30,599 bases of DNA from Candidatus Bathyarchaeia archaeon (GTDB lineage: Archaea; Thermoproteota; Bathyarchaeia; Bathyarchaeales; Bathycorpusculaceae), in contig JBMFMB010000017.1 of the NCBI GenBank assembly GCA_049970895.1, positions 1-30,599 on the forward strand. The letters are read 5' to 3'. Under the pieces are notes generated by a model. It saw nothing but the letters and a program-made list of their open reading frames with translations, made no database searches and had not been told where the DNA came from. This document shows positions 13,769 to 30,599 of this stretch, in pieces (the stretch's first letter is position 1; each line of letters starts with the position of its first letter). Both the position numbers and the translations under genes were made by a program.

Positions 13769-14404
13769 ATGACGACATTGTCCACGAAGAAGGTAAGGGA
13801 TAGGTGGCGCAGCAAGATATGGTATACGGTTGTTGCTCCACCATACTTTGGAAATGTTGAGTTAGGCGCAATTCCAGCAGATGAACCTGAAAAACTCATT
13901 GGAAGGGTTATGGAGGTAACGCTTTACGATATCACTGGCGACTTTTCCCATCAGTACATGAAATTGTATTTCCAAATAACCCAGGTTGAGGGAAAAACAG
14001 CCCGTACCATGTTTAAGGGGCATGAATACTCAAGGGATTACCTTAGAAGTCTTGTGAGGCGGAGGACAACGAAGGTTGATGGAATCTTCAACGTTTCAAC
14101 TAAAGACGGCTACAGATTTAGAGTAGCGGTCTGCGCCTTCACTCTCACAAGAATTAAGACCTCGCAGGAGCGTGCCATACGCAAAATTATGGCGAAAATA
14201 GTTGAGGAGAAAAGTGCAGCCCTAACAATGGACCAATTTGTCCAAGAAATGGTTCTTGGAAAAATCGCATCAGACATATATAATGAAGCTAGAAAAATTG
14301 TGCCACTCCGCCATGTTGGCGTCAGAAAGTCTAAGCTTCTAATGCAGGTGGCTCAAATACAAGCGTTACAAGTGCCACTGCAAAGGGTCGAGGAGCAAAG
14401 TTAG
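13769..14404 (+). CDS. rps3ae: 30S ribosomal protein S3Ae (eS1)
   Basis: RDRWRSKIWY, LIGRVMEVTLYDITGD, RDYLRSLVRRRTTKVD, IVPLRHVGVRKSK. Confidence 0.95.
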   Translation: MTTLSTKKVRDRWRSKIWYTVVAPPYFGNVELGAIPADEPEKLIGRVMEVTLYDITGDFSHQYMKLYFQITQVEGKTARTMFKGHEYSRDYLRSLVRRRTTKVDGIFNVSTKDGYRFRVAVCAFTLTRIKTSQERAIRKIMAKIVEEKSAALTMDQFVQEMVLGKIASDIYNEARKIVPLRHVGVRKSKLLMQVAQIQALQVPLQRVEEQS

Positions 14405-14946
14405 CCTTCAACAAGCTTTTTACCATATTCATAGCCCATTTCAAAGGCTTTTAGGTTCAGCGCTTCAGTTCCCTTTGGAACATTAGCCCTAATAGACTCT
14501 TTTAGGGCTTCCTTATCCACCATGCTTGTTATTGCTGTGAAGGCTCCTAACATAACAACGTTTGCAACTATTCTTCTTCCAAGCTCTTCAGCCATTCTCG
14601 TGGCTGGAACCCGAAAAACTTTCACGCCTTTAAGTTCCCTCTCGTTGGGGATCATGTCCGGGTCGAGTATTATTGTTCCGCCCTTTTTCACGGTCTCTGC
14701 ATACTCGTTGTAGGCGTGTTGGGACATCACCACCAAAATGTCTGGCTCGGTAACTTTTGGAAAGTCTATTTCTTCATCGGCTATTACAACTTCTGAGCGA
14801 CATGCTCCGCCCCGCGACTCTGGTCCATAAGACTGCGTTTGCACAGCGTGCTTCCCACAGTATATGCATGCGGCCATAGCCACCATAATCCCGGACTTAA
14901 TTATTCCTTGACCGCCGAAACCTGCAAATCTAATTTCAACACGCAT
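14401..14946 (-). CDS. korC: 2-oxoacid:ferredoxin oxidoreductase gamma subunit
   Basis: IRFAGFGGQG, QSYGPESRGG, ANVVMLGA, NLKAFEMG. Confidence 0.9.
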   Translation of the reverse strand: MRVEIRFAGFGGQGIIKSGIMVAMAACIYCGKHAVQTQSYGPESRGGACRSEVVIADEEIDFPKVTEPDILVVMSQHAYNEYAETVKKGGTIILDPDMIPNERELKGVKVFRVPATRMAEELGRRIVANVVMLGAFTAITSMVDKEALKESIRANVPKGTEALNLKAFEMGYEYGKKLVEG

Positions 14947-14958
14947 AAGGCATTCACC

Positions 14959-15798
14959 TTATTCTTCAATTTCTTTCATTATTTGCGCCATTTTATTATG
15001 GAGAAGCTCCTCATAAGTTGGCTTTTCAATATCTACAAATTCTCCAACAACTATTTTTTCAGGGGTTATTTCCGCCTCTGCAGGATCCGAAAAGTTGGCG
15101 ATTACCGAAACTTTCTTAAACCATTCCATCATTTCGAGGCCTGTTCGCATTTTGTTGTGGCGTCCATAGATTTCTGGGCATGGTGATATAACTTCTATGA
15201 AGGAGAAGCCCTTCCTTTGTAGAAGCTTCTTGATAGACATTGTTAGCATTCGCACGTGGAGGGTTGTCCACCTTGCCACATAAGTTGCTCCGGCTGCCGC
15301 TGCTAAATGGACAAGGTTGAAGGGGTGCTCAATGTTCCCGTAAGGTGTTGTCGTTGTTAAAGCATTTAGTGGTGTTGTTGGTCCAACTTGTCCGCCTGTC
15401 ATTCCGTAGTTGAAGTTGTTGGCGCATATCACTTTGATTCCAATGTTTCTCCTTGCAGCGTGGATGAAGTGGTTTCCCCCTATCGCGAAAAGGTCGCCAT
15501 CACCACTTATAACAACAACTTCGAGTTCCGGATTTGCAAGTTTAACGCCTGTTGCAAAGGCTATTGGACGCCCGTGGGTCGCGTGGAAAGAATCCACATT
15601 TGTGTAGCCAGCTGCTCGCCCAATACAACCTATTCCTGAAACGACAACAAGCTTGTCCAAGTTTATCTGCAACTCGTCAAGCGCATGCACAAAAGCGTTA
15701 AGGATTATGCCGTTCCCACATCCGGTGCACCATATGTGGGGCATCATGGTGGCTCTCAGATATTTTGAAAAGGGATGTTGCTCAACAGCTTCTGTCAT
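14959..15798 (-). CDS. korB: 2-oxoacid:ferredoxin oxidoreductase beta subunit (TPP-binding)
   Basis: WCTGCG, SGIGC, HGR, GDGD...NNFNYGMTGGQ, SPCP. Confidence 0.92.
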   Translation of the reverse strand: MTEAVEQHPFSKYLRATMMPHIWCTGCGNGIILNAFVHALDELQINLDKLVVVSGIGCIGRAAGYTNVDSFHATHGRPIAFATGVKLANPELEVVVISGDGDLFAIGGNHFIHAARRNIGIKVICANNFNYGMTGGQVGPTTPLNALTTTTPYGNIEHPFNLVHLAAAAGATYVARWTTLHVRMLTMSIKKLLQRKGFSFIEVISPCPEIYGRHNKMRTGLEMMEWFKKVSVIANFSDPAEAEITPEKIVVGEFVDIEKPTYEELLHNKMAQIMKEIEE

Positions 15799-16949
15799 TT
15801 GCTATACCTCCCGATAAATTCGAGAATCTCCATTGGCGTATGCGGCTCCTCACCCAACTTCGGCATGTGGAAAACTGGTGTTCCTTTTGCAGCCCTTTCA
15901 ACCTCCCTAGCCATCTGCCCACAATTCATTTCCGGAACAATTATTGCTTTGGCATTTTCAGCAGCCTTCGCCACGTGCTTTTCTGGGAAGGGCCAAAGGG
16001 TTATTGGGCGGAGGAGCCCGGCTTTTACACCTTGCTGTCTTGCTTTTCTCACAGCGCTTAGGGCTGCCCGCGCAACTATTCCGTAGGCAAAAACCACAAT
16101 TTCGGCGTCATTCAACATATGCTCCTCAACACGGATTATTTTGTCAGCGTTCTTCCTTATTTTGTCGCAGAGTCTCTGCACAAGCCGCATCTGAACCTCT
16201 GAGCTTTGTGTACGTGGATAACCATGCTCATCGTGGGTTAGGCCTGTAGCATGAAAGCGGAAGCCCTCACCGAAACAAGCCATAGGTGGAACCAAGTCAT
16301 CGTCTGGCATGAAAGGTGCATACTTTTCTGGCGGCGTGTTAGGCTTTTTGCGGTTAACAATCCTTATCTCTTCAGCTGGTGGTATAACCACTTTCTCCCA
16401 CATGTGAGCAACAACCTCATCAGCCATCACAAAAGTTGGAACACGATAGGTTTCAGCCAAGTTGAAGGCTTCAATCGTCAGATCAAACATTTCCTGAACA
16501 GAAGAGGGGGCTAAGGCTATAATTTCGTAATCGCCATGGGAACCCCATTTTGCTTGCATAACATCCTGCTGTCCCGGAAGGGTTGGCTGTCCAGTGCTTG
16601 GGCCTCCACGCATTACGTCAACGATTACACAAGGGGCTTCTGTCATGGCAGCCAAGCCTATGTTCTCCTGCATTAGACTAAAGCCAGGCCCAGAGGTGGC
16701 TGTCATAGCCTTCAAGCCAGCGTAGGATGCGCCTATAACTGCGGCTATTGAGGCTATCTCGTCTTCCATTTGAATGTAGATTCCTCCAACTTTCGGCATT
16801 CTGGCCGCTAAATGCTCCGCTATTTCTGTTGCTGGTGTTATTGGGTATCCAGCGAAGAACCGGCATCCGGCTGCTATGGCGCCTTCTGCACATGCAATGT
16901 CGCCGCTCATGAAGTGCACACCGGTCAAAACTGCTTTTTTACCAGCCAT
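15795..16949 (-). CDS. korA: 2-oxoacid:ferredoxin oxidoreductase alpha subunit
   Basis: FFAGYPITP, QMEDEIAS, TATSGPGFSLMQE, RGGPSTGQPT, EMNCGQ. Confidence 0.92.
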   Translation of the reverse strand: MAGKKAVLTGVHFMSGDIACAEGAIAAGCRFFAGYPITPATEIAEHLAARMPKVGGIYIQMEDEIASIAAVIGASYAGLKAMTATSGPGFSLMQENIGLAAMTEAPCVIVDVMRGGPSTGQPTLPGQQDVMQAKWGSHGDYEIIALAPSSVQEMFDLTIEAFNLAETYRVPTFVMADEVVAHMWEKVVIPPAEEIRIVNRKKPNTPPEKYAPFMPDDDLVPPMACFGEGFRFHATGLTHDEHGYPRTQSSEVQMRLVQRLCDKIRKNADKIIRVEEHMLNDAEIVVFAYGIVARAALSAVRKARQQGVKAGLLRPITLWPFPEKHVAKAAENAKAIIVPEMNCGQMAREVERAAKGTPVFHMPKLGEEPHTPMEILEFIGRYSK

Positions 16950-17229: not shown

Positions 17230-19635
17230 TTAGGTTCCCCCGGCTTTTTGGAAAACTTTTTTGGCGAGTTCTATCTCCTCTGGGGTTACGCTTTCCACGA
17301 TCTTCTGCATTTCGTAAATTTTGGAGGCGAACCTTTCTCCTTCAGCTGCTGAAACCCATAACAATTGAAGCCTCTCCTTGTTTAACCCGTTTTGTTCCAT
17401 CTTTTTCCATAAACGTTCTACACGCCTCTGAGTGTGATAGTTGGCATTTATATAGTGGCAGTCTCCAGGGTGGCAGCCCGCCACGATGACTGCAGCAGCA
17501 CCTCTCGCGAAGGCCCTTTCAACAAATTTTGGAGCTACCCTTCCAGAGCACATCGTTCTAATTATCCGCACGTTTGGTGGGTATTGCATTCTACTGACTC
17601 CAGCGAAGTCTGCACCGGCATAAGCACACCAGTTGCAGCAGAAGGCAACAATTTTCTTATCAGCATCGTGCTCCGTAACAGCGTCTATTTGAGCTATTAT
17701 CTGCTCGTCTGTAAAATGATTCTGCGTCAACGCGTCGGAAGGGCACTCAGCAGCGCATGTTCCGCATCCTCCGCAAGCAGCCTCAACGATTTCGATGCGT
17801 TTAAGCTCCTTGTTTAGAGTTATCGCATTATAGGGGCAAACCTTTGTGCAAAGCCCACAAGCCTTACACTTTTCCACGTCCAAAATCGGCGTGATAGCCT
17901 CAACCGTAACCTTGCCCTTAGCCATAAGAATGCCAGCTCTGGCTGCGGCTGCGCTTGCCTGTGTTACGCTGTCTTTTATGTCCTTTGGGGCTTCAGCACA
18001 TCCAGCGAAGAATATGCCTCCGGTTGCAGCGTCCACTGGTCGGAGCTTTGGATGGGCTTCCATGAAGAATCCGTCTTGCGTTCTGGAAAGTGTCAGTAAT
18101 CGCTGTATTACTTCGCTGTCTTTCCGCGGCTCAAGCCCAACGGATAGAATAACCATGTCGAAGTTCATTTTGTATGGTTCTTTCAGGAGCGTGTTTTCGC
18201 CTATTAGCCAAAGGTTGCGGGTCCTCTTATCCTCAATTATTTCTGCTGGAAGCCCCCGGATGAATATTACGCCTTCCTTTTTCGACCTCTTGTAGAGGTC
18301 TTCGAAACCCTTCCCATACGCGCGGATGTCAACGTAAAAGACGTAGATTTCAGTTTCAGGCCAATGCTCCTTAATGAGGAGACTGTCCTTTATTGTGTTC
18401 ATGCAACAAACATTACTGCAGTAAGTTCGTCCAGTCCTATTAGAGCGGGAGCCAACACATTGTATAAAGGCTACACGCTTCGGAACCTTCATATCACTAG
18501 GCCTTATCAACCTCCCACCAGATGGACCGCCAGCATTAATCAGCCTTTCAAATTCAAGGGATGTAATCACGTTTAGATATTTGCCATAACCATACTGTGG
18601 AAGCGCTGAAGGGTCAAAAACGTCTGCGCCCGTCGCCACTATTATTGTTCCCACTTCTAGTTCTATAGTTTCAGGTTTCATTGTGAAGTCTATGGCTTGT
18701 CTTTCGCAAGCCTTAACGCATTTGTCGCACACCATCACGCCGTCTTTGTTGAGGCATAGGTTCATGTCAATAATGTATGTTGATGGGACAGCTTGTGCAA
18801 ACGGCGTGTAAATGGCGTGTCTTAGGGCTAGGCCAGCGTCAAACTCGTTTGGCGCTGTCATGGGACAAACTTTCGAGCATTCGCCACACGCTGAACAGTC
18901 TTCCTTCACATATCGCGGTTTCTTTAAGACTTTGACTCGGAAGTTGCCTATGTATCCTTTTACATCGATAACTTCACTGTTGGTTAATAGTTCAATGTTT
19001 GAATGGCGCCCTACATCCGACATTTTAGGCGCAAGAATACATATGGAACAGTCCATTGTTGGGAAAGTCTTGTCTATCCTTGCCATCATCCCGCCGATGC
19101 TCGGCTCCCTCTCCACCAAATAAACTTTATAACCAGTATCCGCAAGGTCCAAAGCTGCTTGAATGCCTGCAACGCCCCCACCAATGATTAATGCTTTCCT
19201 TATAATTGGCACTTCAATTTCGCTGGCTGATCTAAGTAGGGCTGCCTTTGCCACAGCCATTTTAACAATGTCTTTAGCCTTTTCTGTTGCCGCCTTCCTA
19301 TCGTAGAGGTGAACCCAACTACACTGCTCACGTATGTTAGCCATCTCAAAAAGGTACTTGTTTAACCCAGCCTCTTCACACACTTTCCGAAATGTTGGTT
19401 CATGAAGACGCGGAGAACACGAAGCAACAACCACACGGTTGAGCCTATACTCCCTAATATCATTCTTTATAAGCGCTTGTCCCTGGTCTGAACACGTATA
19501 GCGGTAATCCCTTGCCAAAACAACATGGGGAAGTGTTGCAGCAAACTCTGCAACTTCTTTGCAGTCAACAGAACCAGCGATGTTTAAACCGCAATGACAA
19601 ACATAAACTCCAATGCGAATTTCCTCTTTTGCCAT
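17230..19635 (-). CDS. hdrA: HdrA-MvhD fusion (flavin-based electron-bifurcation module)
   Basis: GVYVCHCGLNI, SCSPRLHE, GGGVAG, TFPTMDCSICI, inserted ferredoxin, LEFER, CVGSR...YCSNVCCMNTIK, C-terminal ferredoxin, then MvhD (FCCNWCAY, MCSGR, GCHPGDCHY). Confidence 0.95.
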   Translation of the reverse strand: MAKEEIRIGVYVCHCGLNIAGSVDCKEVAEFAATLPHVVLARDYRYTCSDQGQALIKNDIREYRLNRVVVASCSPRLHEPTFRKVCEEAGLNKYLFEMANIREQCSWVHLYDRKAATEKAKDIVKMAVAKAALLRSASEIEVPIIRKALIIGGGVAGIQAALDLADTGYKVYLVEREPSIGGMMARIDKTFPTMDCSICILAPKMSDVGRHSNIELLTNSEVIDVKGYIGNFRVKVLKKPRYVKEDCSACGECSKVCPMTAPNEFDAGLALRHAIYTPFAQAVPSTYIIDMNLCLNKDGVMVCDKCVKACERQAIDFTMKPETIELEVGTIIVATGADVFDPSALPQYGYGKYLNVITSLEFERLINAGGPSGGRLIRPSDMKVPKRVAFIQCVGSRSNRTGRTYCSNVCCMNTIKDSLLIKEHWPETEIYVFYVDIRAYGKGFEDLYKRSKKEGVIFIRGLPAEIIEDKRTRNLWLIGENTLLKEPYKMNFDMVILSVGLEPRKDSEVIQRLLTLSRTQDGFFMEAHPKLRPVDAATGGIFFAGCAEAPKDIKDSVTQASAAAARAGILMAKGKVTVEAITPILDVEKCKACGLCTKVCPYNAITLNKELKRIEIVEAACGGCGTCAAECPSDALTQNHFTDEQIIAQIDAVTEHDADKKIVAFCCNWCAYAGADFAGVSRMQYPPNVRIIRTMCSGRVAPKFVERAFARGAAAVIVAGCHPGDCHYINANYHTQRRVERLWKKMEQNGLNKERLQLLWVSAAEGERFASKIYEMQKIVESVTPEEIELAKKVFQKAGGT

Positions 19636-19642
19636 TCTCCAC

Positions 19643-21082
19643 TCACCTTAAACCTAAAGACTTTAGGTAACAATCAATAGAAGCGGCGGCAATTTTCCCA
19701 GAACATATAGCCTCAATAATTGAGGCTGGACCAGTTACGGCGTCCCCGCCGGCAAACACGCCTTTAAGGGTTGTCTCCATGGTTAATGGGTTAACCCAAA
19801 TAGTGCCATCCTCGTTTAGCTCAACTTCTTTCGGCAAAAAAGACAGATCTGGAACCTCACCAATCGCCAAAATCACCACGTCCGCCTCTTTAACAAATTC
19901 AGAACCCTCAATAGGAATCGGTTTCCTCCTTCCTGTCTCATCTAACCCGCCTAACTGCATTCGGACAAATTCAACAGCAGAAACCTTTCCGCCATTGCCC
20001 AGAAAACTTTTAGGAGAAACCAAAAACTCGATTTTTACACCCTCATTTTGAGCCTCCTTAACTTCCCATGGGTTTGCAGGCATCTCCTCCACGGATCTCC
20101 GATAAAATATCGTTGCCTCTCCAGCACCACATTTTAGGGCTGTTCTTGCAGAGTCAACTGCAACGTTCCCACCGCCAATCACAACCACGCGTTTGCCCCT
20201 AACGTCCGGCATCTTTCCAGAATTAACCATCCAGAGAAAGTCTAAAGCATGCATCACCCCATTTAAGTCGACACCTTCAACCCTCAACTCTTGCCCTTTA
20301 TGAGCGCCTACACCGATAAAAATAGCATCATACCCTTGCCTCAAACTACTAAAATCAACATCCTTACCAACAGCAACACCAGTTTCTATTTCTACGCCAA
20401 GATCTTTCAAAACTTCTATGTCCTTGTCCAAAAATTCCCTCGGGAGACGATAAGTTGGCAAACACTTTCTCAACATCCCGCCCGACTCTGAAAGAACTTC
20501 AAAAACCGTAACCTTATAGTTTTTTAGAGCTAAGTCGTGTGCAACAGTAAGCCCTGCTGGCCCTGAGCCTATAACTGCAACCTTCCTATTTGATAATTCT
20601 GCTTGAGCTTCCTTCTTTTTCTCGCCTAAAAATTCCTTCCTCAGCTTTTCAGCCTCGTTTATGACTTTGTTTAGATTTAACCCCGCGCGCTCCGGATGGA
20701 AACACGCAAGAATCGTGACTAAGGGGAGGGGGGATACCTTAACAATTTTTCTTATGGCATTTTCAAACACTCGCCCATATCCCCATTTAACAGCAAACTT
20801 TTTGACGTGAAGGAATATTTCTGGCGGCTTCAGGGCTTGTGGGCAATGCCTACAACAACGGTAACACCAAGCACAAAGCCAAAGCTCATCTGAAGCCAAA
20901 GCATATTCAATGCTTAAGAAAATCTTTTCAAGAATATTTCTCGGGTTATATTCTCCTTTTAGGAGTCCCGCCATGGGGCAGCTTGCCGTGCATATTCCAC
21001 ATTCAAAACAGAACTTGAGTTTCTCAGCGTCTGGATATTCGGCGAGAACCTCTTTGTAGGTCACGGTTTTTGCCGTGCTCAA
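19643..21082 (-). CDS. Chimeric HdrC-like 2x[4Fe-4S] domain plus GltD/NfnB/SudA-like FAD/NAD(P)H oxidoreductase
   Basis: N-terminal CFECGICTASCP and WLCAWCYRCCRHCPQ, then IGSGPAG, GGML...LPTYRLP, IGGGNVAVD, YRRS, FAGGDAVTGP. Confidence 0.85.
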   Translation of the reverse strand: MSTAKTVTYKEVLAEYPDAEKLKFCFECGICTASCPMAGLLKGEYNPRNILEKIFLSIEYALASDELWLCAWCYRCCRHCPQALKPPEIFLHVKKFAVKWGYGRVFENAIRKIVKVSPLPLVTILACFHPERAGLNLNKVINEAEKLRKEFLGEKKKEAQAELSNRKVAVIGSGPAGLTVAHDLALKNYKVTVFEVLSESGGMLRKCLPTYRLPREFLDKDIEVLKDLGVEIETGVAVGKDVDFSSLRQGYDAIFIGVGAHKGQELRVEGVDLNGVMHALDFLWMVNSGKMPDVRGKRVVVIGGGNVAVDSARTALKCGAGEATIFYRRSVEEMPANPWEVKEAQNEGVKIEFLVSPKSFLGNGGKVSAVEFVRMQLGGLDETGRRKPIPIEGSEFVKEADVVILAIGEVPDLSFLPKEVELNEDGTIWVNPLTMETTLKGVFAGGDAVTGPASIIEAICSGKIAAASIDCYLKSLGLR

Positions 21083-24739: not shown

Positions 24740-24782
24740 ACCTTTAAATCAGCTTTTCAACATTGTAGTGCGTGGTGCTTCA

Positions 24783-25238
24783 ATGCCAACAAAACATGTT
24801 CACGAGAAAGGCTCCCTATCCATTGTAGAACTTATTGAAAATGTTAGGGGAAACGCGAATTTTCAAAAGGCAGGAGCCATCGCCATTTTCATAGGTGTTG
24901 TTCGTGGGAAGAACCCAAAAGGGGAGAAGGTTCAGAAACTGGAGATTGAGGCTTATAATGAAAAGGCGGATGAGGTTTTGTCAAACATATGCCAAGACCT
25001 AAAAAGTAGGGATGGCATTGTGGATGTTCAAATACACCATTTTGTCGGTGAGTTTAATGTTGGCGAGGACCTTGTTTATGTTTTGGTTGCCGGCTCGCAT
25101 AGGGAGGATGTCTTTCCAGTTTTAAGGGAGGCTGTTGAAAGGTACAAGAAGGAAGCCCCAATTTTTAAGAAGGAATATGTTGTTTCAAAGGATGGTATTG
25201 GGAAGGCTTACTGGGTTGCAGAAGCCGAAGAACCATAG
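24783..25238 (+). CDS. moaE: Molybdopterin synthase catalytic subunit
   Basis: GAIAIFIGVVR, LEIEAY, VGE..V.V.VAGSHR, KKEAPIFKKE, YWV. Confidence 0.9.
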   Translation: MPTKHVHEKGSLSIVELIENVRGNANFQKAGAIAIFIGVVRGKNPKGEKVQKLEIEAYNEKADEVLSNICQDLKSRDGIVDVQIHHFVGEFNVGEDLVYVLVAGSHREDVFPVLREAVERYKKEAPIFKKEYVVSKDGIGKAYWVAEAEEP

Positions 25239-25989: not shown

Positions 25990-26274
25990 TACTTTGTGTT
26001 TTGTTCTGTTTTGATATTAGCTCGCCTAGGGCGTTATGCTGCTGCCGAAACTATGATTAAGCCGAAGAGGCCCGCCGCTAATGTCGATAAGTATTGATTT
26101 ACAATAGGTGGGTAGGGTGTAGTCTGGCATCAGTCCCTTCCAGAGGGGCTGTGACTCTTGCACATGTAGGGTTTCAGTCACCTTTTCCGAGCCGTCTAGA
26201 TAGGAGGAGGCGAAGGGTATTAGGATTGCAAGCCCAACTATTATCAGGATTAGTGCCTTTACATAGCCTTTCAA
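25990..26274 (-). pseudogene. Decayed PDGLE-domain (CbiN/NikN-like) gene
   Basis: TTG 26274: KGYVKALILIIVGLAILIPFASSY-LDGSE-KV...LMPDYTLP, then a frameshift to NQYLSTLAAGLFGLIIVSAAA. The 3' end is approximate. Confidence 0.72.
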
Positions 26275-26864
26275 ATCGCTTCCCTCTTTAGGAAAGCTAA
26301 ACCGTTCAGTACTGCGGGCTGCACTCGGTATAGCTTTGTTATGGCTGTTGTTTATATTGCTCCGCCGGCCTCTGCGAAAGCTGGAGAAAAGCCTATCTCC
26401 AAGCCGCATGCCAGAGCGCCCAAAACAACTGATAGCCACGAGGCTGCGAACACGCCTAGGAAGAAGCGTTTGCCATTTGCTGAGTTTCCAGCTATGAGTT
26501 TGACTATGAAGAAGCTTAGTCCACCTATTACCGCCATGTTGAAGATGTTTGCCCCCAGAGCTATTATTCCGCCATCTGCGAAGAAAAGCGCCTGCATCAA
26601 CAGAACTGTTGTCATGCTCAGGACTGCCTCGTAAGGGCCTAGAACTATTGAGAGGAATGTCCCGCCCACAAGGTGCCCGCTTGTTCCGTAGTTGGAAGTT
26701 AATCATTTGGGCTGCAAAGACGAAGACATTTGAAACCGCCAGTACTGGGCTAGTATTTCGGGTTTGTGGCTTTCGCTCTTCCATGACAGGACAAGGGATA
26801 TTATGGATATTGCAGCCATTGTGGCTGCGATTTCTAGGCTTATGTGGCCGTTTGGTATATGCCT
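26271..26864 (-). pseudogene. cbiM: Decayed CbiM/NikM Co/Ni ECF transporter S-component
   Basis: AGG(lost ATG)-HIPNGHISLEIAA..., frameshift, VFAAQMINF, frameshift, GTSGHLVGG...LGP...QALFFADGGIIALGANIFNM, premature TAA at 26352-26354. Confidence 0.85.
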
Positions 26865-26942
26865 TTTGTTGCTCGCGTTACTTTTAAGTTGAAAAGCAAT
26901 GCTATAAAACTTTGCCGTTCAAAGCCGTGAAAAATTAAGAGG

Positions 26943-27218
26943 TTAAGAGAATAGTTCAGTTAAGATTTGGTTTAGCTGGTTTTTGTCTTTAACTTTTTTG
27001 AAGATGGCTTTTCCTGTTGCGTATAGGTGTATCTGGGTTTCTTTGTAGGTTAAGTCAAAGATTATTTTAGCTACGGCTTTTTGCACTATGGCTTTTTCCA
27101 GTATTTTGGCTATTGCCTCTTCTTTTTTATCGTGTCTGAAGAAGATTATGTAGTCTTTTTCTTCTCCGCATGCCTCTTCGATTCTTGCTATGTAAGTGTC
27201 CAGAACGGTGGTGCTCAT
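26943..27218 (-). CDS. Small hypothetical protein (91 aa, single Cys), last gene of the Fe-S operon
   Basis: ATGA overlap with the sufS stop and an upstream AGGAGA RBS. Base composition is similar to the operon. Confidence 0.72.
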   Translation of the reverse strand: MSTTVLDTYIARIEEACGEEKDYIIFFRHDKKEEAIAKILEKAIVQKAVAKIIFDLTYKETQIHLYATGKAIFKKVKDKNQLNQILTELFS

Positions 27219-28453
27219 AGGGACTGCTCAATCTCCTTTAGGACTTCCACTAGCCGGTCTATTTCTTCTTGGGTGTTGTATATGTAGAAGCTTGCCCTTG
27301 CCGATGATTTTATTCCGAGTTTTTGGTGGAGGGGTTGGGCGCAGTGGAAGCCGCTTCTAATCATTATGCCATAAGTGTCGAGGATCAAAGCCAAGTCATG
27401 GGAGTCGAAGTCTTCAATGTTGAAAGGTACTATGCCACATTTTATTTTCACGTCTTTTGGTCCGTAAACTTTGACTTTTCGGCATTCTTGTAGGCGTTTT
27501 ATGGCGTATTCTGTTAAGGCGCATTCGTGGGTTTGTACGTTTTCCATCCCGAGGTTTTTTAGGTATTTTATGGCCGCCATTAGACCTACTCCACCGCATA
27601 TATTTGGCGTTCCAGCCTCGAATTTCCATGGCAGGTCGTTCCATGTTACTTTGCAGCTTTTAGTTTTTGGGTTGTAGGAGACTTCTCGTATCATTTCGCC
27701 TCCTCCGTGGAAGGGTTCCATTTCTTCTAGGATTTCTCGCCTGCCGTATAGGACGCCTATTCCCGTTGGTCCAAGCATTTTATGTCCGGAGAAGGCTAGG
27801 AAGTCGCAGCCGAGTTCTTTTACATTTATTGGTAGGTGGGGGACGGATTGGGCTCCGTCTACGAGGATTAGGGCGTTGTTTTCGTGGGCTAGTTTTGCGG
27901 CATAACGCACATCATTTATTACGCCCGTAACATTTGAGACGTGGGTTATGCAGACCATTTTTGCTTTTGGTGTGATGGCTTTTTCTAGGGCTTGCCTGTT
28001 TAGGGTTCCGTCTTCGTTTATATCTATGTAGCGCACTTTGAAGCCCTTTATTTTTGATAGGATTTCCCATGGGACTATGTTGCTGTGGTGTTCCATTAAA
28101 GTTACGAGGACTTCGTCTCCTTTTTTGAGGTTCCGTAGTCCCCATGAGTAGGCGACCGTGTTTATGGCTTCTGTTGTTCCCCTTGTGAAGATTATTTCTT
28201 CTATGCTTTCTGCGCCTATAAATTTGGCTGTTTCTTCGTGGGCTTCTTCGTAAAGCTCTGTTGCTTCCAATGAGAGCGTGTGTACGGCTCTGTGGACGTT
28301 GGCATTATGTTGCTCATAGTATTCTTTTATGGCTTCTATAACTTGTTTTGGTTTTTGGGATGTGGCTGCATTGTCAAAGTATATGAGGGGATGATTGTTT
28401 ATTTTCCGTTTTAGAATTGGGAAGTCTTCTCGGATTTTATAGGGGTCGAACAT
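27215..28453 (-). CDS. sufS: Cysteine desulfurase, group II (SufS/CsdA)
   Basis: YFDNAATSQKP, NVHR, MEHHSNIVPW, DGAQ, FSGHKMLGPTG, KFEAGTP, RSGFHCAQPL, RASFY. Confidence 0.95.
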   Translation of the reverse strand: MFDPYKIREDFPILKRKINNHPLIYFDNAATSQKPKQVIEAIKEYYEQHNANVHRAVHTLSLEATELYEEAHEETAKFIGAESIEEIIFTRGTTEAINTVAYSWGLRNLKKGDEVLVTLMEHHSNIVPWEILSKIKGFKVRYIDINEDGTLNRQALEKAITPKAKMVCITHVSNVTGVINDVRYAAKLAHENNALILVDGAQSVPHLPINVKELGCDFLAFSGHKMLGPTGIGVLYGRREILEEMEPFHGGGEMIREVSYNPKTKSCKVTWNDLPWKFEAGTPNICGGVGLMAAIKYLKNLGMENVQTHECALTEYAIKRLQECRKVKVYGPKDVKIKCGIVPFNIEDFDSHDLALILDTYGIMIRSGFHCAQPLHQKLGIKSSARASFYIYNTQEEIDRLVEVLKEIEQSL

Positions 28454-28953
28454 TATTTTTCCTCTGCCATCTTCATTTTTTTCTCTAGGATTTTTGCCAG
28501 TTCCTCCTCTTCTAGGGCTTGTTTTTCTTCAAAGGTCAAGTCTTTTGAGAGCCACTCCGGTGTTGTTTGTTTGTTTTTGTAGTAGGTTCTTATGGCTCTT
28601 CTTAGCGCGCCGACAGCCAGTATTCCGCAGTGGAATTTTACCGCTGGGAGCCCGCCGACCTCTTCTGCTATGCTTTTCCATGTGATTTTCCATGCGTCTT
28701 CAAGTTTCATTCCCCTCACTTTTTCTGTCACTATACTGGATGTGGCTATGTTGGCGGCGCATCCGTAGCTTTCGAAGGATGCCCTTTCAATTATGTCATG
28801 GTCGTTTATTTTTAGGTAGAAGGTTATCATGTCTCCGCATTGGGGGTTTCCAGCCACAGCTGAAACTGTGGCGTCTTCCATTTTTCCAAGGTTTTTGGGG
28901 TTTCTGAAAAGTTCGAGGATTTTTTGGCTGTAGGGTAAGGGTGCACGGGACAT
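28453..28953 (-). CDS. iscU: Fe-S cluster scaffold, IscU/NifU-N type
   Basis: YSQKILELF.NPKNLG, GNPQCGD, YGCAANIA, GGLPAVKFHC. Confidence 0.92.
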   Translation of the reverse strand: MSRAPLPYSQKILELFRNPKNLGKMEDATVSAVAGNPQCGDMITFYLKINDHDIIERASFESYGCAANIATSSIVTEKVRGMKLEDAWKITWKSIAEEVGGLPAVKFHCGILAVGALRRAIRTYYKNKQTTPEWLSKDLTFEEKQALEEEELAKILEKKMKMAEEK

Positions 28954-30176
28954 TATTCCACCACTGTTGTGCCCGTTATTCCCCTAAGCCTTTCAACGGC
29001 TTTTGGCAAAACTTCCAGAACATAGTCTATATCTTCTTCTGTGTGATAGCGTGTTACTTTCATGAGGATGCTTCCGTGGGCTTCTTCGAATTTTCTTCTT
29101 ATGGCGGTTAGGACGTGGCTTGGTTGTAGTAGGCGTCTTGTGCATGCGCTTCCGCTTGATACGTAAACGCCGTTTAGGCTTAGCTCTATTGTTAGGGATT
29201 CTCCTTCGCAGCGAAGGAAGCTTATGTTGGCGTTGTCCGGCGCCCGTTTCTCGCCTTTCGGTCCGTTTAGGCGCACGTCCGTTATTTTTTCGAAGATTCC
29301 GTTTATGAGTTTGTCCCTTAGCCTCTGCATGTGCCTGACGTTTTCTTCGAAGTTTTTGAAGGCTAGTTCTGAGGCTTTTGCAAAGCCAACTATCAAGGGC
29401 GTGTTTTCAACTCCTGGCCAAAGTTTTTGTGTGCCTATTTGCCCCTCTAAGATTCTTTCTATGTTTATGCCTTCTCGCACGTAGAGGGCTCCTATTCCGC
29501 GGGGTCCCAGTATTTTGTAGCTGCTTATTGTTGCCATGTCCACGCCTATTTCACGCACTTTGAAGGGTGTTTTTCCGTAGGCATCTGAGGCGTCTGTGTG
29601 GAATATGGTGTTTGGGTTTTTGTCCTTAACTATTTTTAAGGCTTCTTTTATGGGTTGTATTGTTCCTATTTCGTGGTTTACGGCTGAAAGGCTTACGAGG
29701 ACTGTTTCGCTGTCGACGGCTTCTTTCAGTTTTTCTAGTTTTATGAAGCCTTCAGCATCCACTGGAATCTTTGTTACTGTGAAGCCGTATCTGGTTAGCA
29801 TTTCAGCCACGTGTATTATGCTTAGGGGCTCAACTTCCGAAATCACAATTTTTTTGCCTTTCCCCCGCATTTGGAGGGTTGTGCCTAAAAGGGCTAGGTT
29901 GTTGGCTTCTGTTTCGCCAGGCGTGAAATTTACCTCTTCAAGGTTTTTGCAGCCTATGTAGCCTGCCATTTTTTGGGCTGAATCCATTATGGCTTCGTAG
30001 GCTTCCCATCCAGGCTTGTGGGTAAGCGTGGGATTGCCATAGGCGCGCTGGTTGAAGTATGGGAGCATTGCCTCAACGACTTCGGCTGGGACGAAGCTTG
30101 AGTTTTCTATGTCTAGGTAAACCTCACGCCTTAACCCTTCATGAGCCTTTAATAGTTCGCGGACGTTTTCCACCAT
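28953..30176 (-). CDS. iscS: IscS/NifS-like (group I) cysteine desulfurase homologue with a degenerate active site
   Basis: YGNP, TEANNLA, VNHEIGTIQPI, FHTDA, K.LGPRGIGALY and VSSGSAC are retained. Several PLP/substrate residues are altered (see findings). Confidence 0.85.
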   Translation of the reverse strand: MVENVRELLKAHEGLRREVYLDIENSSFVPAEVVEAMLPYFNQRAYGNPTLTHKPGWEAYEAIMDSAQKMAGYIGCKNLEEVNFTPGETEANNLALLGTTLQMRGKGKKIVISEVEPLSIIHVAEMLTRYGFTVTKIPVDAEGFIKLEKLKEAVDSETVLVSLSAVNHEIGTIQPIKEALKIVKDKNPNTIFHTDASDAYGKTPFKVREIGVDMATISSYKILGPRGIGALYVREGINIERILEGQIGTQKLWPGVENTPLIVGFAKASELAFKNFEENVRHMQRLRDKLINGIFEKITDVRLNGPKGEKRAPDNANISFLRCEGESLTIELSLNGVYVSSGSACTRRLLQPSHVLTAIRRKFEEAHGSILMKVTRYHTEEDIDYVLEVLPKAVERLRGITGTTVVE

Positions 30177-30599
30177 AACCTTTCAAGTCCGTTTAGCTTT
30201 TAGGCTTACACCACTTCCTAAATGGTTTGAGCTTATACAAAAAGCTATTTGACGCTGTTAAATGCCCTTAAACGCCAGAAGGTCACATTTGTGGCTGGTT
30301 CCAAACAACAAATACACTACCCCCTCTCTATACAATTTTTGGCTTGAAAAACAGCCAATAGCACCCCTCCTCCTATAAATTTCCAAACCCAAAAGCCTTA
30401 AACATCAAATTTAACAAAAGAAAAACACTTAAATAGAATACCCCTCTAGAAAACAAGCACGCATTTTGAGAAACAGTACTTAATGTGGTTCGCTTGCTAT
30501 GTTTTTCTAATAATTTTACCTACTAACCTGAAGAGTACTGGGAAGCTATAGGGAACGCTTAACTTGCCGGTCTAGATTTTTAGGTATTCGCTTTCGGAC

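Follow-up and report, generated by a model that had tools for sequence, protein, structure and literature searches.

In the published descriptions of the Archaeoglobus fulgidus IscS–IscU pair, IscS lacks desulfurase activity, and its loop Cys serves as a ligand of the [2Fe-2S] cluster that IscU carries (PMC8918507, PMC7585200). The protein is reported to bind PMP despite having no Lys (the Schiff-base position is Asp199), sulfide has been proposed as the sulfur source of the pair, and a review of cysteine desulfurases treats [2Fe-2S] assembly on A. fulgidus IscS–IscU without desulfurase function as an open question (PMC8918507). An archaeal paralog in Methanosarcina acetivorans, IscS1, is described as encoded with an IscU and lacking a catalytically essential residue, and a role like that of A. 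fulgidus IscS has been suggested for it (PMC7585200). The minimal ISC system (MIS), a two-gene unit as described, pairs a desulfurase homolog (MisS) with an IscU-type scaffold (MisU), has no chaperones or carriers, and is mostly archaeal. For SufU, the U-type protein of the Bacillus subtilis SufS–SufU pair, descent from MisU has been proposed.

The window analyzed here, 30,599 nucleotides of a contig from a Candidatus Bathyarchaeia archaeon, holds an operon for an IscS-like protein, IscU, SufS, and a 91-aa protein (Table 1). Its genes abut tightly: TAATG at 28953 shares one base between the stop codon of the IscS-like gene and the start codon of iscU, TAATG at 28453 does the same for iscU and sufS, and an ATGA overlap (27215–27218) joins sufS to the gene for the 91-aa protein. 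These minus-strand overlaps bear out the four translationally coupled genes proposed in an earlier note on this DNA. On balance, we favor a reading in which the product of the first gene belongs to the IscS family but acts as a partner of IscU without desulfurase activity, similar to IscS of A. fulgidus, with SufS supplying the sulfur.

Table 1. Operon features in the analyzed window, with the basis of each assignment.
Feature	Position	Strand	Basis and remarks
IscS-like protein, 407 aa	28953–30176	minus	ORF list; type I desulfurase homolog, MisS/IscS family, remodeled PLP/substrate pocket
IscU-type scaffold, 166 aa	28453–28953	minus	NifU_N (Pfam); all cluster ligands present
Canonical type II cysteine desulfurase SufS, 412 aa	27215–28453	minus	Aminotran_5 (Pfam), TIGR01979
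91-aa protein, no known family, one invariant Cys (C17)	26943–27218	minus	ORF list
Non-coding, upstream of first gene to window end; presumed promoter/leader	30177–30599	minus	no ORF of at least 50 aa on either strand

The IscS-like protein has the class V aminotransferase fold over its full length (PF00266, residues 19–386, 196 bits); Pfam finds Aminotran_5 in both desulfurase homologs and NifU_N in IscU. It matches solved IscS chains in the PDB at 300–309 bits and lies below every NifS/IscS equivalog cut-off in NCBIfam, scoring best against NifS (376.2 vs. 530.75 bits) and lower against the IscS models (307.4 vs. 548; 304.2 vs. 643.2). Residue numbers are drawn from an alignment of the window protein (L001) to Escherichia coli IscS, in which the active site is extensively altered: the motif D8-Y-S-A-T-T13 becomes D22-I-E-N-S-S27, the PLP-stacking acid–base His H104 is P117, the O3′ ligand Q183 is D198, H205 is Y220, R240 is W253, T243 (which we take to be a cross-subunit phosphate ligand) is V256, and R354, the Arg for the substrate α-carboxylate, is L371. 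All pocket substitutions listed previously are found here, to which N155H (H168), A/G75E (E88), and H96K (K109) can be added. Equally in keeping with the earlier reading, the Schiff-base Lys K206 (K221) and the mobile-loop catalytic Cys C328 (C345, within SSGSAC) are retained; so are the pyridine-N Asp D180 (D195), T89 (E. coli T76), and S218 (E. coli S203). A clade-specific N-terminal extension of ~14 residues carries an invariant H12 and E18. For E. coli IscS, Arg354 is described as the ligand of the substrate α-carboxylate, and H104Q and Q183E are reported as inactive (PMC9978102). Because H104, Q183, and R354 are Pro, Asp, and Leu here, these residues make a normal cysteine desulfurase very unlikely, and to that extent the suggestion of a pseudo-enzyme holds.

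The window protein resembles A. fulgidus IscS2 (PDB 4EB5, 4EB7, 4HVK, 4R5F), a precedent that the earlier note had described correctly (PMC8918507). The two proteins have the type I fold in common (~300 bits), and both are encoded with an IscU, that of A. fulgidus (NifU-1/IscU, 4eb5_C, 126 bits) being the best PDB match of the window IscU. Both have R354L, have lost Q183, H205, T243, and the “ATT” motif, and keep the loop Cys; at R354, Q183, H205, and T243 the window protein has L, D, Y, and V, and A. fulgidus IscS has L, A, N, and S. The shared R354L and the common loss of the other three residues are absent from the earlier note. However, A. fulgidus IscS2 has lost the Lys (Asp199) and keeps H104, N155, and R240, whereas the window protein keeps the Lys and has P104, H155, and W240. 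The likeness to M. acetivorans IscS1, which also has no Lys, is one of published description and not of sequence. In the tree, an A. fulgidus-like representative (P0141) is placed apart from the window clade, in a part of the backbone without resolution. The comparison shows what appears to be a loss of IscS catalysis by different sets of substitutions, with the loop Cys and the partnership with IscU always kept. Inactive IscS of the A. fulgidus type was already known; the Lys-retaining clade is, provisionally, new, since the literature search that returned no description of it did not extend to the study defining MIS (Garcia et al., 2022).

The altered pocket is a shared trait. Across 120 homologs of 406–434 aa (mostly 407), P104 and Y205 each occur in 119, and D183, W240, L354, and V or I at position 243 occur in all, as do K206, C328, and D180; among clade loci whose sequence reaches that site, L354 is likewise found in 25/25. 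As an outgroup, 53 canonical loci from the same scan retain R240, T243, C328, and R354 without exception and H104, Q183, and K206 in 52 cases (the exception being L058). The 26 substituted sequences group in the tree as a single archaeal clade (SH-aLRT 99) that lacks long branches and spans identities of 51–89%. The pattern of substitution is, by this sampling, ancient and two-layered, a feature absent from the earlier note: A11N, T12S, Q183D, R240W, and R354L are clade-wide, and H104P and H205Y are restricted to a Bathyarchaeia subclade. Of 83 columns conserved in the 53 canonical proteins, 58 are retained in the clade. Fixed changes affect six clade-wide (A11N, T12S, H96K, Q183D, R240W, R354L) and four more in Bathyarchaeia only (H104P, H205Y, K211R, S330R), a distribution that places the divergence of the clade, as read from the alignment, mainly in the pocket.

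It could be argued that the IscS-like gene is simply a dying paralog. All NCBIfam equivalog cut-offs are failed, and split copies occur in two loci (L012, L028); but these splits, like that of sufS in L008, lie on contigs named contig_N and are taken for putative assembly frameshifts. Between the window and L007, dN/dS is 0.077 for the IscS-like gene, 0.063 for iscU, 0.075 for sufS, and 0.27 for the 91-aa protein; in most pairs the synonymous sites have reached saturation (median pS ~0.8), and this pair provides the only good estimate, with window–L024 less so. The IscS-like protein is at least as conserved as SufS in most loci (81 vs. 76% identity in L002, 75 vs. 67% in L005), SufS being marginally higher in L007 and L013. 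The gene is under strong purifying selection and is not decaying. The combination that the earlier note had set as the mark of decay, private substitutions with relaxed dN/dS, is contradicted by the pattern common to 120 homologs and 27 loci, by the low dN/dS, and by ordinary branch lengths, and decay is rejected as vanishingly improbable.

Altered chemistry, which the earlier note had named as its alternative in the form of a changed substrate, deserves more consideration. The protein might still bind PLP or PMP through K221, D195, T89, and S218 and act on a substrate without a free α-carboxylate—for example, an amine, or a thiol bound to a carrier or protein—or else carry out a different PLP reaction that feeds IscU. 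Only the aberrant L025 (K206R) departs from the clade-wide retention of K206, D180, T76, and S203; a pure scaffold would have no need of these residues, which would fit continued cofactor binding. The 11 non-Bathyarchaeia loci also keep H104 and H205, and these members may therefore still bind PLP; PMP binding by Lys-less A. fulgidus IscS offers a precedent (PMC8918507). E10, N11, D183, W240, and L354 vary little or not at all, as might be expected if the pocket held a particular new ligand. However, in Bathyarchaeia His104 itself has become Pro, and changes at positions 104 and 183 inactivate the E. coli enzyme (PMC9978102). The neighborhood, moreover, suggests no candidate substrate. Position 243, presumably a phosphate contact in canonical enzymes, is hydrophobic throughout the clade. 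We regard altered chemistry as possible but unlikely, and the non-desulfurase partner of IscU as the preferred interpretation.

The two other recognizable components keep their motifs, in agreement with what the earlier note had reported of them. SufS scores 590.5 bits against TIGR01979 (cut-off 475.1) and is most similar to B. subtilis SufS (475 bits), to which it aligns with its His, Asn, Asp/Gln, His–Lys, catalytic Cys, and Arg motifs intact. IscU carries the ligand set C39, D41, C65, H108, and C109 (E. coli C37, D39, C63, H105, C106), invariant in 14/14 and 26/26 sequences, together with a conserved C-terminal extension of ~35 residues; it too falls under NCBIfam equivalog cut-offs (135.2 vs. 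187.9; 114 vs. 192.4). As in B. subtilis, the sufS gene adjoins that of a U-type protein, but the window protein has the IscU-type His–Cys pair that distinguishes it from SufU, and the SufU model matches only its first 91 residues, below the cut-off (65.8 vs. 92.5). The locus also differs from MIS, whose desulfurase is described as active, in two ways: the corresponding component here has lost the substrate residues of canonical enzymes, and the operon adds a SufS of type II.

Gene neighborhoods tie these components together. The iscU gene lies immediately downstream of the IscS-like gene in 27/27 clade loci, and 11 of them have all four genes in the order seen here. In 18/27 clade loci a SufS gene occurs no more than 7 kb away, compared with 1/53 canonical IscS loci (Fisher p = 2e-10, uncorrected for shared ancestry), so that the association proposed from a single operon proves both conserved and specific. 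The arrangement recurs across Bathyarchaeia and related lineages (Wolframiiraptoraceae, Desulfurococcales). In the remaining nine loci the fetched DNA contains no SufS gene. Three of these stretches stop short at the end of a contig, whereas the flanks of L021, L022, L023, and L025 are complete or nearly so; the gene is missing from L011 and L027 as well. SufS in cis is therefore not obligatory. These nine loci would suit an arrangement in which SufS is a neighbor and not the donor: the IscS-like protein and IscU would use free sulfide, as proposed for A. fulgidus (PMC8918507) and as described as established for archaeal SMS, and SufS and the small Cys protein would serve other thiolation pathways. 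A MoaE gene near the operon, at 24768–25238 of the same window, is compatible with such pathways. Yet iscU, sufS, and the small gene are translationally coupled through overlaps of one and four bases, and the link to SufS recurs in separate lineages with differing gene orders while being nearly absent at canonical IscS loci. A SufS that is a neighbor only is, in our estimation, rather improbable, and SufS remains the preferred donor.

The small proteins encoded beside SufS recall the IscS–TusA and SufS–SufE persulfide relays, in which small single-Cys proteins are likewise encoded next to the desulfurase. The description of the last gene product as a small Cys protein is correct insofar as a Cys is present and invariant (39/39 aligned homologs), but it is a single residue, C17, and not one of several; it sits in a β-hairpin turn. 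The 91-aa protein differs from TusA and SufE in its predicted fold. The AF2 model (pLDDT 86.3, pTM 0.71) superposes best, in Foldseek, on the TATA-binding protein TBP (1ais_A, probability 0.98, TMq 0.55), with no match at E ≤ 0.001 and no recognizable sulfur-carrier fold; a TBP-like fold is a prediction of the model. No Pfam family matches at E ≤ 0.01 (DUF7585 appears at E 0.051 only), and the one NCBIfam match, with a family of lipoproteins to which it is unrelated, stays below threshold (17.6 vs. a cut-off of 65). A SufE-, TusA-, or frataxin-type accessory was considered and rejected, given the absence of any such family profile and the best superpositions on TBP and TBP-like domains. A search for fused forms of 166–2000 aa found none, which is weak evidence. 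A complex prediction with the IscS-like protein and IscU scored the 91-aa partner at 0.00 and 0.00; run without controls, it is evidence neither way.

In sister lineages (L013, L015, L016, L017, L018), an ORF of ~80 aa with invariant C16 and P20 replaces the 91-aa protein. Pfam finds no TusA match in these ORFs, and their top PDB match, the SirA-like 3hz7, lies under usual significance (profile E 0.43; fold E 6.9e-3, probability 1.00, TM 0.60/0.64). They are probably TusA/SirA-like proteins, candidate members of the UPF0033 family of sulfur carriers.

Under the reading that we favor, the IscS-like protein would represent an old archaeal type I subfamily (IscS/MisS) that has presumably lost canonical L-cysteine desulfuration, by analogy with the E. 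coli IscS mutants, and would be an obligate partner of IscU, with complex formation expected from homology. Most likely, a dimer would hold two IscU molecules, after the A. fulgidus (IscS–IscU)2 complex, and the invariant loop Cys345 would reach the IscU assembly site as either the fourth cluster ligand or a persulfide-carrying arm; the relay and cluster-ligand roles are indistinguishable by sequence. Most likely, the canonical SufS, translated together with IscU, would release the sulfur from cysteine, and this sulfur would pass to the IscS-like/IscU site directly or through the small single-Cys protein, that is, the TBP-like 91-aa protein in Bathyarchaeia and the probable TusA/SirA-like protein in sister lineages. 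SufS could hand its sulfur either straight to IscU or to the small protein, and sulfide could also be the source, as suggested for A. fulgidus.

The clade offers a natural experiment, in which a remodeled IscS-like protein, an intact SufS, and small single-Cys proteins are brought together in one operon, and it suggests how archaea with a non-catalytic IscS get sulfur into iron–sulfur clusters. The operon therefore predicts a hybrid pathway in which a desulfurase of type II would supply sulfur to IscU and an adaptor of type I descent. Where source annotations name these homologs, they are called “cysteine desulfurase”; inferences about sulfur sources in Bathyarchaeia may therefore miscount them.

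It is also conceivable, though we consider it a long shot, that what was once the PLP pocket is now a selected site for a new ligand, putatively Fe(II), making the IscS-like protein a deliverer of iron. Most of the replacements that are invariant or almost invariant in the clade could in principle bind a metal: E24, H168, and D198, plus E88 and Y220 in Bathyarchaeia. If Fe(II) were bound, the IscS-like protein would constitute the iron half of the pathway and SufS with the small Cys carrier the sulfur half, the two meeting on IscU via the Cys345 loop, and the site would be a candidate answer, at least in these archaea, to the question of the iron donor in Fe–S assembly. D195 and K221, both retained, would be next to these putative metal ligands, and the N-terminal extension adds its invariant H12.

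The IscS-like protein belongs to an operon of four overlapping genes (see the table), as the earlier note had described: one-base TAATG overlaps join the IscS-like gene to IscU and IscU to SufS, and an ATGA overlap joins SufS to the gene for a 91-aa protein. The two desulfurase homologues of this operon are sharply split by NCBIfam. SufS clears the threshold of its family, with 590.5 vs 475.1 bits; it comes nearest to B. subtilis SufS, at 475 bits, and its motifs are intact in that alignment, as had been claimed. The IscS-like protein falls below every NifS/IscS equivalog cut-off, at best 376.2 vs 530.75. In IscU, too, the expected ligand residues are intact, with C39, D41, C65, H108 and C109 present in every copy aligned; among solved structures it is closest to the IscU of the A. 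fulgidus IscS-IscU complex. IscU of this clade also carries a conserved, acidic C-terminal extension of ~35 residues (~131-166), with none in E. coli IscU, in which P132, W134, E143, E148 and E150 are nearly invariant. Otherwise the window contains typical archaeal housekeeping genes.

Table. Coordinates of the operon, its neighbours and related features at other loci (L numbers)
Feature	Location	Strand	Description
IscS-like protein, 407 aa	28953-30176	minus	ORF; Pfam Aminotran_5
IscS-like residues 1-16	30129-30176	minus	N-terminal extension
IscU, 166 aa	28453-28953	minus	ORF; Pfam NifU_N
SufS, 412 aa	27215-28453	minus	ORF; Pfam Aminotran_5
91-aa protein	26943-27218	minus	ORF; no Pfam match
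cbiM-like gene	26026-26918	minus	disrupted; in-frame TGA at 26703-26705
MoaE	24768-25238
Fe-S client genes	17230-21082; 14401-16949
~80-aa ORF	L013:8867-9109; L017:8730-8969; L018:8760-9005; L015:8727-9050; L016:2409-2720		IscU-SufS slot
PALP-family and HTH genes	L013:9312-10432		between IscU and SufS
TauE/SafE-family permease	L007:5559-6332		upstream of operon, same strand as operon
Split IscS-like gene	L012:7001-8220; L028:6977-8222		two ORFs
Split SufS gene	L008:8739-9978		two ORFs

Aligned to E. coli IscS, which serves as the numbering reference, the window IscS-like protein shows every substitution that the earlier note had listed: S10-A11-T12-T13 is replaced by E24-N25-S26-S27, H104 by P117, Q183 by D198, H205 by Y220, R240 by W253, T243 by V256 and R354 by L371. 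Three further changes, N155H, A/G75E and H96K, were absent from that list. K206 (K221) and C328 (C345) are kept, as are D180, T76 and S203. We take the ligands of the PLP phosphate to be T76, S203 and H205, together with T243 from the other subunit. A clade-specific N-terminal extension precedes the E. coli IscS start, and H12 and E18 in this region are invariant (31/31 sequences). H104 of IscS is described as stacking on the PLP ring and is proposed as an acid-base catalyst, D180 and Q183 as hydrogen-bonding PLP, and Arg354 as holding the substrate alpha-carboxylate; activity is reported lost in H104Q, D180G, Q183E, K206A and C328S, while an R354K variant remains active (PMC9978102).

The substitution pattern is nearly fixed, and is no private accident of the window genome. 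Among the best 120 homologues (82-100% identity, 406-434 aa, the window protein included), P104 and Y205 each occur in 119, D183, W240 and L354 in all 120, and position 243 is Val in 114 and Ile in 6; K206, D180 and C328 are each found in 120/120. The closest homologues come from Bathyarchaeia or Bathyarchaeota wherever the source gives an organism. In a protein library clustered at 50% identity, scores fall from 498 bits (representative P0121, 57% identity) to ~330 bits at 46% identity or less, and the canonical residues prevail among the 150 representatives listed (H104 in 139, Q183 in 125, R354 in 134). A scan of species-representative genomes recovered 80 loci, of which 27 (L002-L028, 51-89% identity) carry the pattern. 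These are mostly labelled Bathyarchaeota, with other labels naming Wolframiiraptor, Terraquivivens, Geocrenenecus, Zestosphaera/Desulfurococcales and Methanomethyliaceae. The 53 canonical loci (L029-L081, 35-46% identity) all have R240, T243, C328 and R354, and H104, Q183 and K206 are present in 52, the exception being L058.

The substitutions fall into two layers. Characteristic of the clade as a whole are E10, N11, S12, D183, W240, L354 and a hydrophobic side chain at position 243; only L023 (A183) and L025, an aberrant sequence (G12, S183, S240, D205, K206R), depart from this. P104 (15 loci), Y/F/N205 and E75 are limited to a Bathyarchaeia subclade; the other 11 loci covering position 104 retain H104, and ten of these also retain H205, with Asp in L025. 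An unbiased column scan (24 clade and 53 canonical rows, excluding the fragments L012, L027 and L028, L025 and L058) agrees with this picture: of 83 canonically conserved columns, 58 are retained in the clade, six are fixed otherwise clade-wide (A11N, T12S, H96K, Q183D, R240W, R354L), and four more are fixed otherwise only in Bathyarchaeia (H104P, H205Y, K211R, S330R). In a quick LG+G4 tree of 89 rows, without the same three fragments, the 26 substituted sequences form one clade (SH-aLRT 99) with the P104 layer nested inside it (SH-aLRT 98); terminal branch lengths are unremarkable. The invariance of K206, D180, T76 and S203, and the retention of H104 and H205 outside Bathyarchaeia, would suit a PLP enzyme whose substrate has changed, a reading that we consider unlikely.

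The next two sisters of the substituted clade, P0126 and P0131, are degenerate too. These and the library representatives P0141, P0158 and P0160, along with L058, bear other degenerate signatures, in which M, D, T or L stands in place of K206, or several residues of the pocket are altered; such differing signatures imply that canonical residues have been lost repeatedly across the IscS family. Four operon-bearing loci, L006, L011, L016 and L025, are labelled Sulfotelmatobacter (Acidobacteriota), Thaumarchaeota, Thermoplasmata and Heimdallarchaeota, respectively, yet nest among Bathyarchaeia or other clade members; their contigs are probably mis-binned or mislabelled.

Simple decay of the IscS-like gene, which the earlier note had set against its own reading, is contradicted by the recurrence of the pattern in the best 120 homologues and the 27 loci and by strong constraint. 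For the window and L007, the only clearly unsaturated pair (dS 0.5-0.8; Nei-Gojobori), dN/dS is 0.077 for the IscS-like gene, 0.063 for IscU, 0.075 for SufS and 0.27 for the small protein. In most loci, moreover, the IscS-like protein is at least as similar to its orthologues as is SufS of the same locus. Decay is therefore rejected and seems extremely improbable. Because the replacement residues are themselves invariant, the remodelled pocket points to selection for a new function or to a structural one, rather than to a drifting relic. Genes split into two ORFs occur at L012 and L028 (IscS-like) and L008 (SufS), all on contig_N-named contigs from one isolate series; we suspect assembly frameshifts, not pseudogenes.

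A precedent that the earlier note had invoked holds in the published accounts. A. fulgidus IscS is described as having Asp199 in place of Lys, binding PMP and lacking desulfurase activity, and in the IscS-IscU(D35A) structure its loop Cys is the fourth [2Fe-2S] ligand (PMC8918507, PMC13066941). M. acetivorans IscS1 is also reported without the Lys (PMC7585200). In the 4eb5_A alignment, A. fulgidus IscS shares R354L with the window protein and likewise lacks Q183 (Ala), H205 (Asn), T243 (Ser) and the ATT motif. Unlike the window protein, however, it retains H104, N155 and R240, and it has Asp199 where the window protein keeps Lys. These common losses suggest, on alignment evidence, that the window protein is of the A. 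fulgidus IscS kind, apparently reached by partly different changes. The literature searched yielded, provisionally, no description of Lys retention in such a protein, nor of its conserved association with SufS and small Cys proteins in an operon.

IscU is the next gene after the IscS-like one at 27/27 loci (26 by automated counting, in which half of the split L012 copy fell below the score filter). Eleven loci have the four-gene order (L002, L004-L008, L012, L014, L024, L026, L028), and three (L009-L011) the order IscS-like, IscU, small protein, followed directly in L010 by a convergent SufS-like gene. In L025, a weak homologue of the small protein lies upstream. One to three other genes separate IscU from SufS in L013, L015, L017 and L018, among them a TatA-like gene in L015 and, in Desulfurococcales-labelled L013, genes for a PALP-family (cysteine-synthase-type fold) protein and an HTH protein; in L019 and L020, SufS lies 2-3 kb upstream. 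SufS was not found in the DNA fetched for nine loci, three of which end at contig ends. Overall, 18/27 clade loci have SufS no more than 7 kb away, vs 1/53 canonical loci (Fisher p = 2e-10, uncorrected for shared ancestry).

How sulfur reaches A. fulgidus IscS-IscU is acknowledged as an open question in the accounts of that system, which hypothesize sulfide (PMC8918507, PMC13066941). Assembly fed by sulfide here, with SufS serving other pathways, strikes us as rather improbable. We lean, by a little, towards the IscS-like protein being a non-desulfurase adaptor, with SufS providing the sulfur. The protein would form a dimer, bind IscU and bring Cys345 to the assembly site, and the sulfur from SufS would arrive there possibly via the small Cys protein; all of these sulfur-transfer steps we infer. 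What the earlier note observed, an IscS-like protein with substituted PLP/substrate positions beside IscU, intact SufS and a small Cys protein, is borne out, and its interpretation is supported in part.

The small protein does have an invariant Cys (39/39 aligned sequences), one per protein. Its 73 homologues are from Bathyarchaeia or Bathyarchaeota wherever an organism is given, most rows carrying no name. A confident model (pLDDT 86.3, pTM 0.71) places the Cys in a hairpin turn. Foldseek returned no match at E<=0.001; the best-superposing matches are TBP (1ais_A, TMq 0.55, prob 0.98) and the TBP-like domains found in RNase HIII. A protein atlas gave the same TBP-like lead and also placed a similar domain within archaeal proteins of the ThiF/MoeB family and HTH proteins that bind Fe-S (TM 0.62-0.65). 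These model-based resemblances may serve as leads only. In the non-Bathyarchaeia members L013, L017, L018, L015 and L016, the IscU-SufS slot holds a different ORF of ~80 aa with invariant Cys and Pro. Its top solved match by sequence profile is the SirA-like protein 3hz7 (E 0.43), which its model (pLDDT 80) also resembles in fold (E 6.9e-3, prob 1.00, TM 0.60/0.64, 25% identity). UPF0033/SirA is the TusA family, and the ORF probably encodes a TusA-like sulfur carrier, a reading that is moderately supported.

Upstream of the operon at L007, which is the nearest syntenic locus, lies a gene for a TauE/SafE-family permease of the sulfite exporter type; the window ends short of the matching position. 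The cbiM-like gene directly after the window operon is disrupted: one frame covers only profile positions 61-163 of 205, and the downstream part lies in another frame. Its L007 counterpart encodes a complete 220-aa CbiM, with a PDGLE-domain gene after it. The window copy represents a pseudogene or else an error of assembly. The window also encodes MoaE and heavy Fe-S cluster clients, namely three subunits of 2-oxoacid:ferredoxin oxidoreductase and two Fe-S flavoproteins, of which one is large and HdrA-like, combining an FlpD (MvhD) domain with several 4Fe-4S domains.
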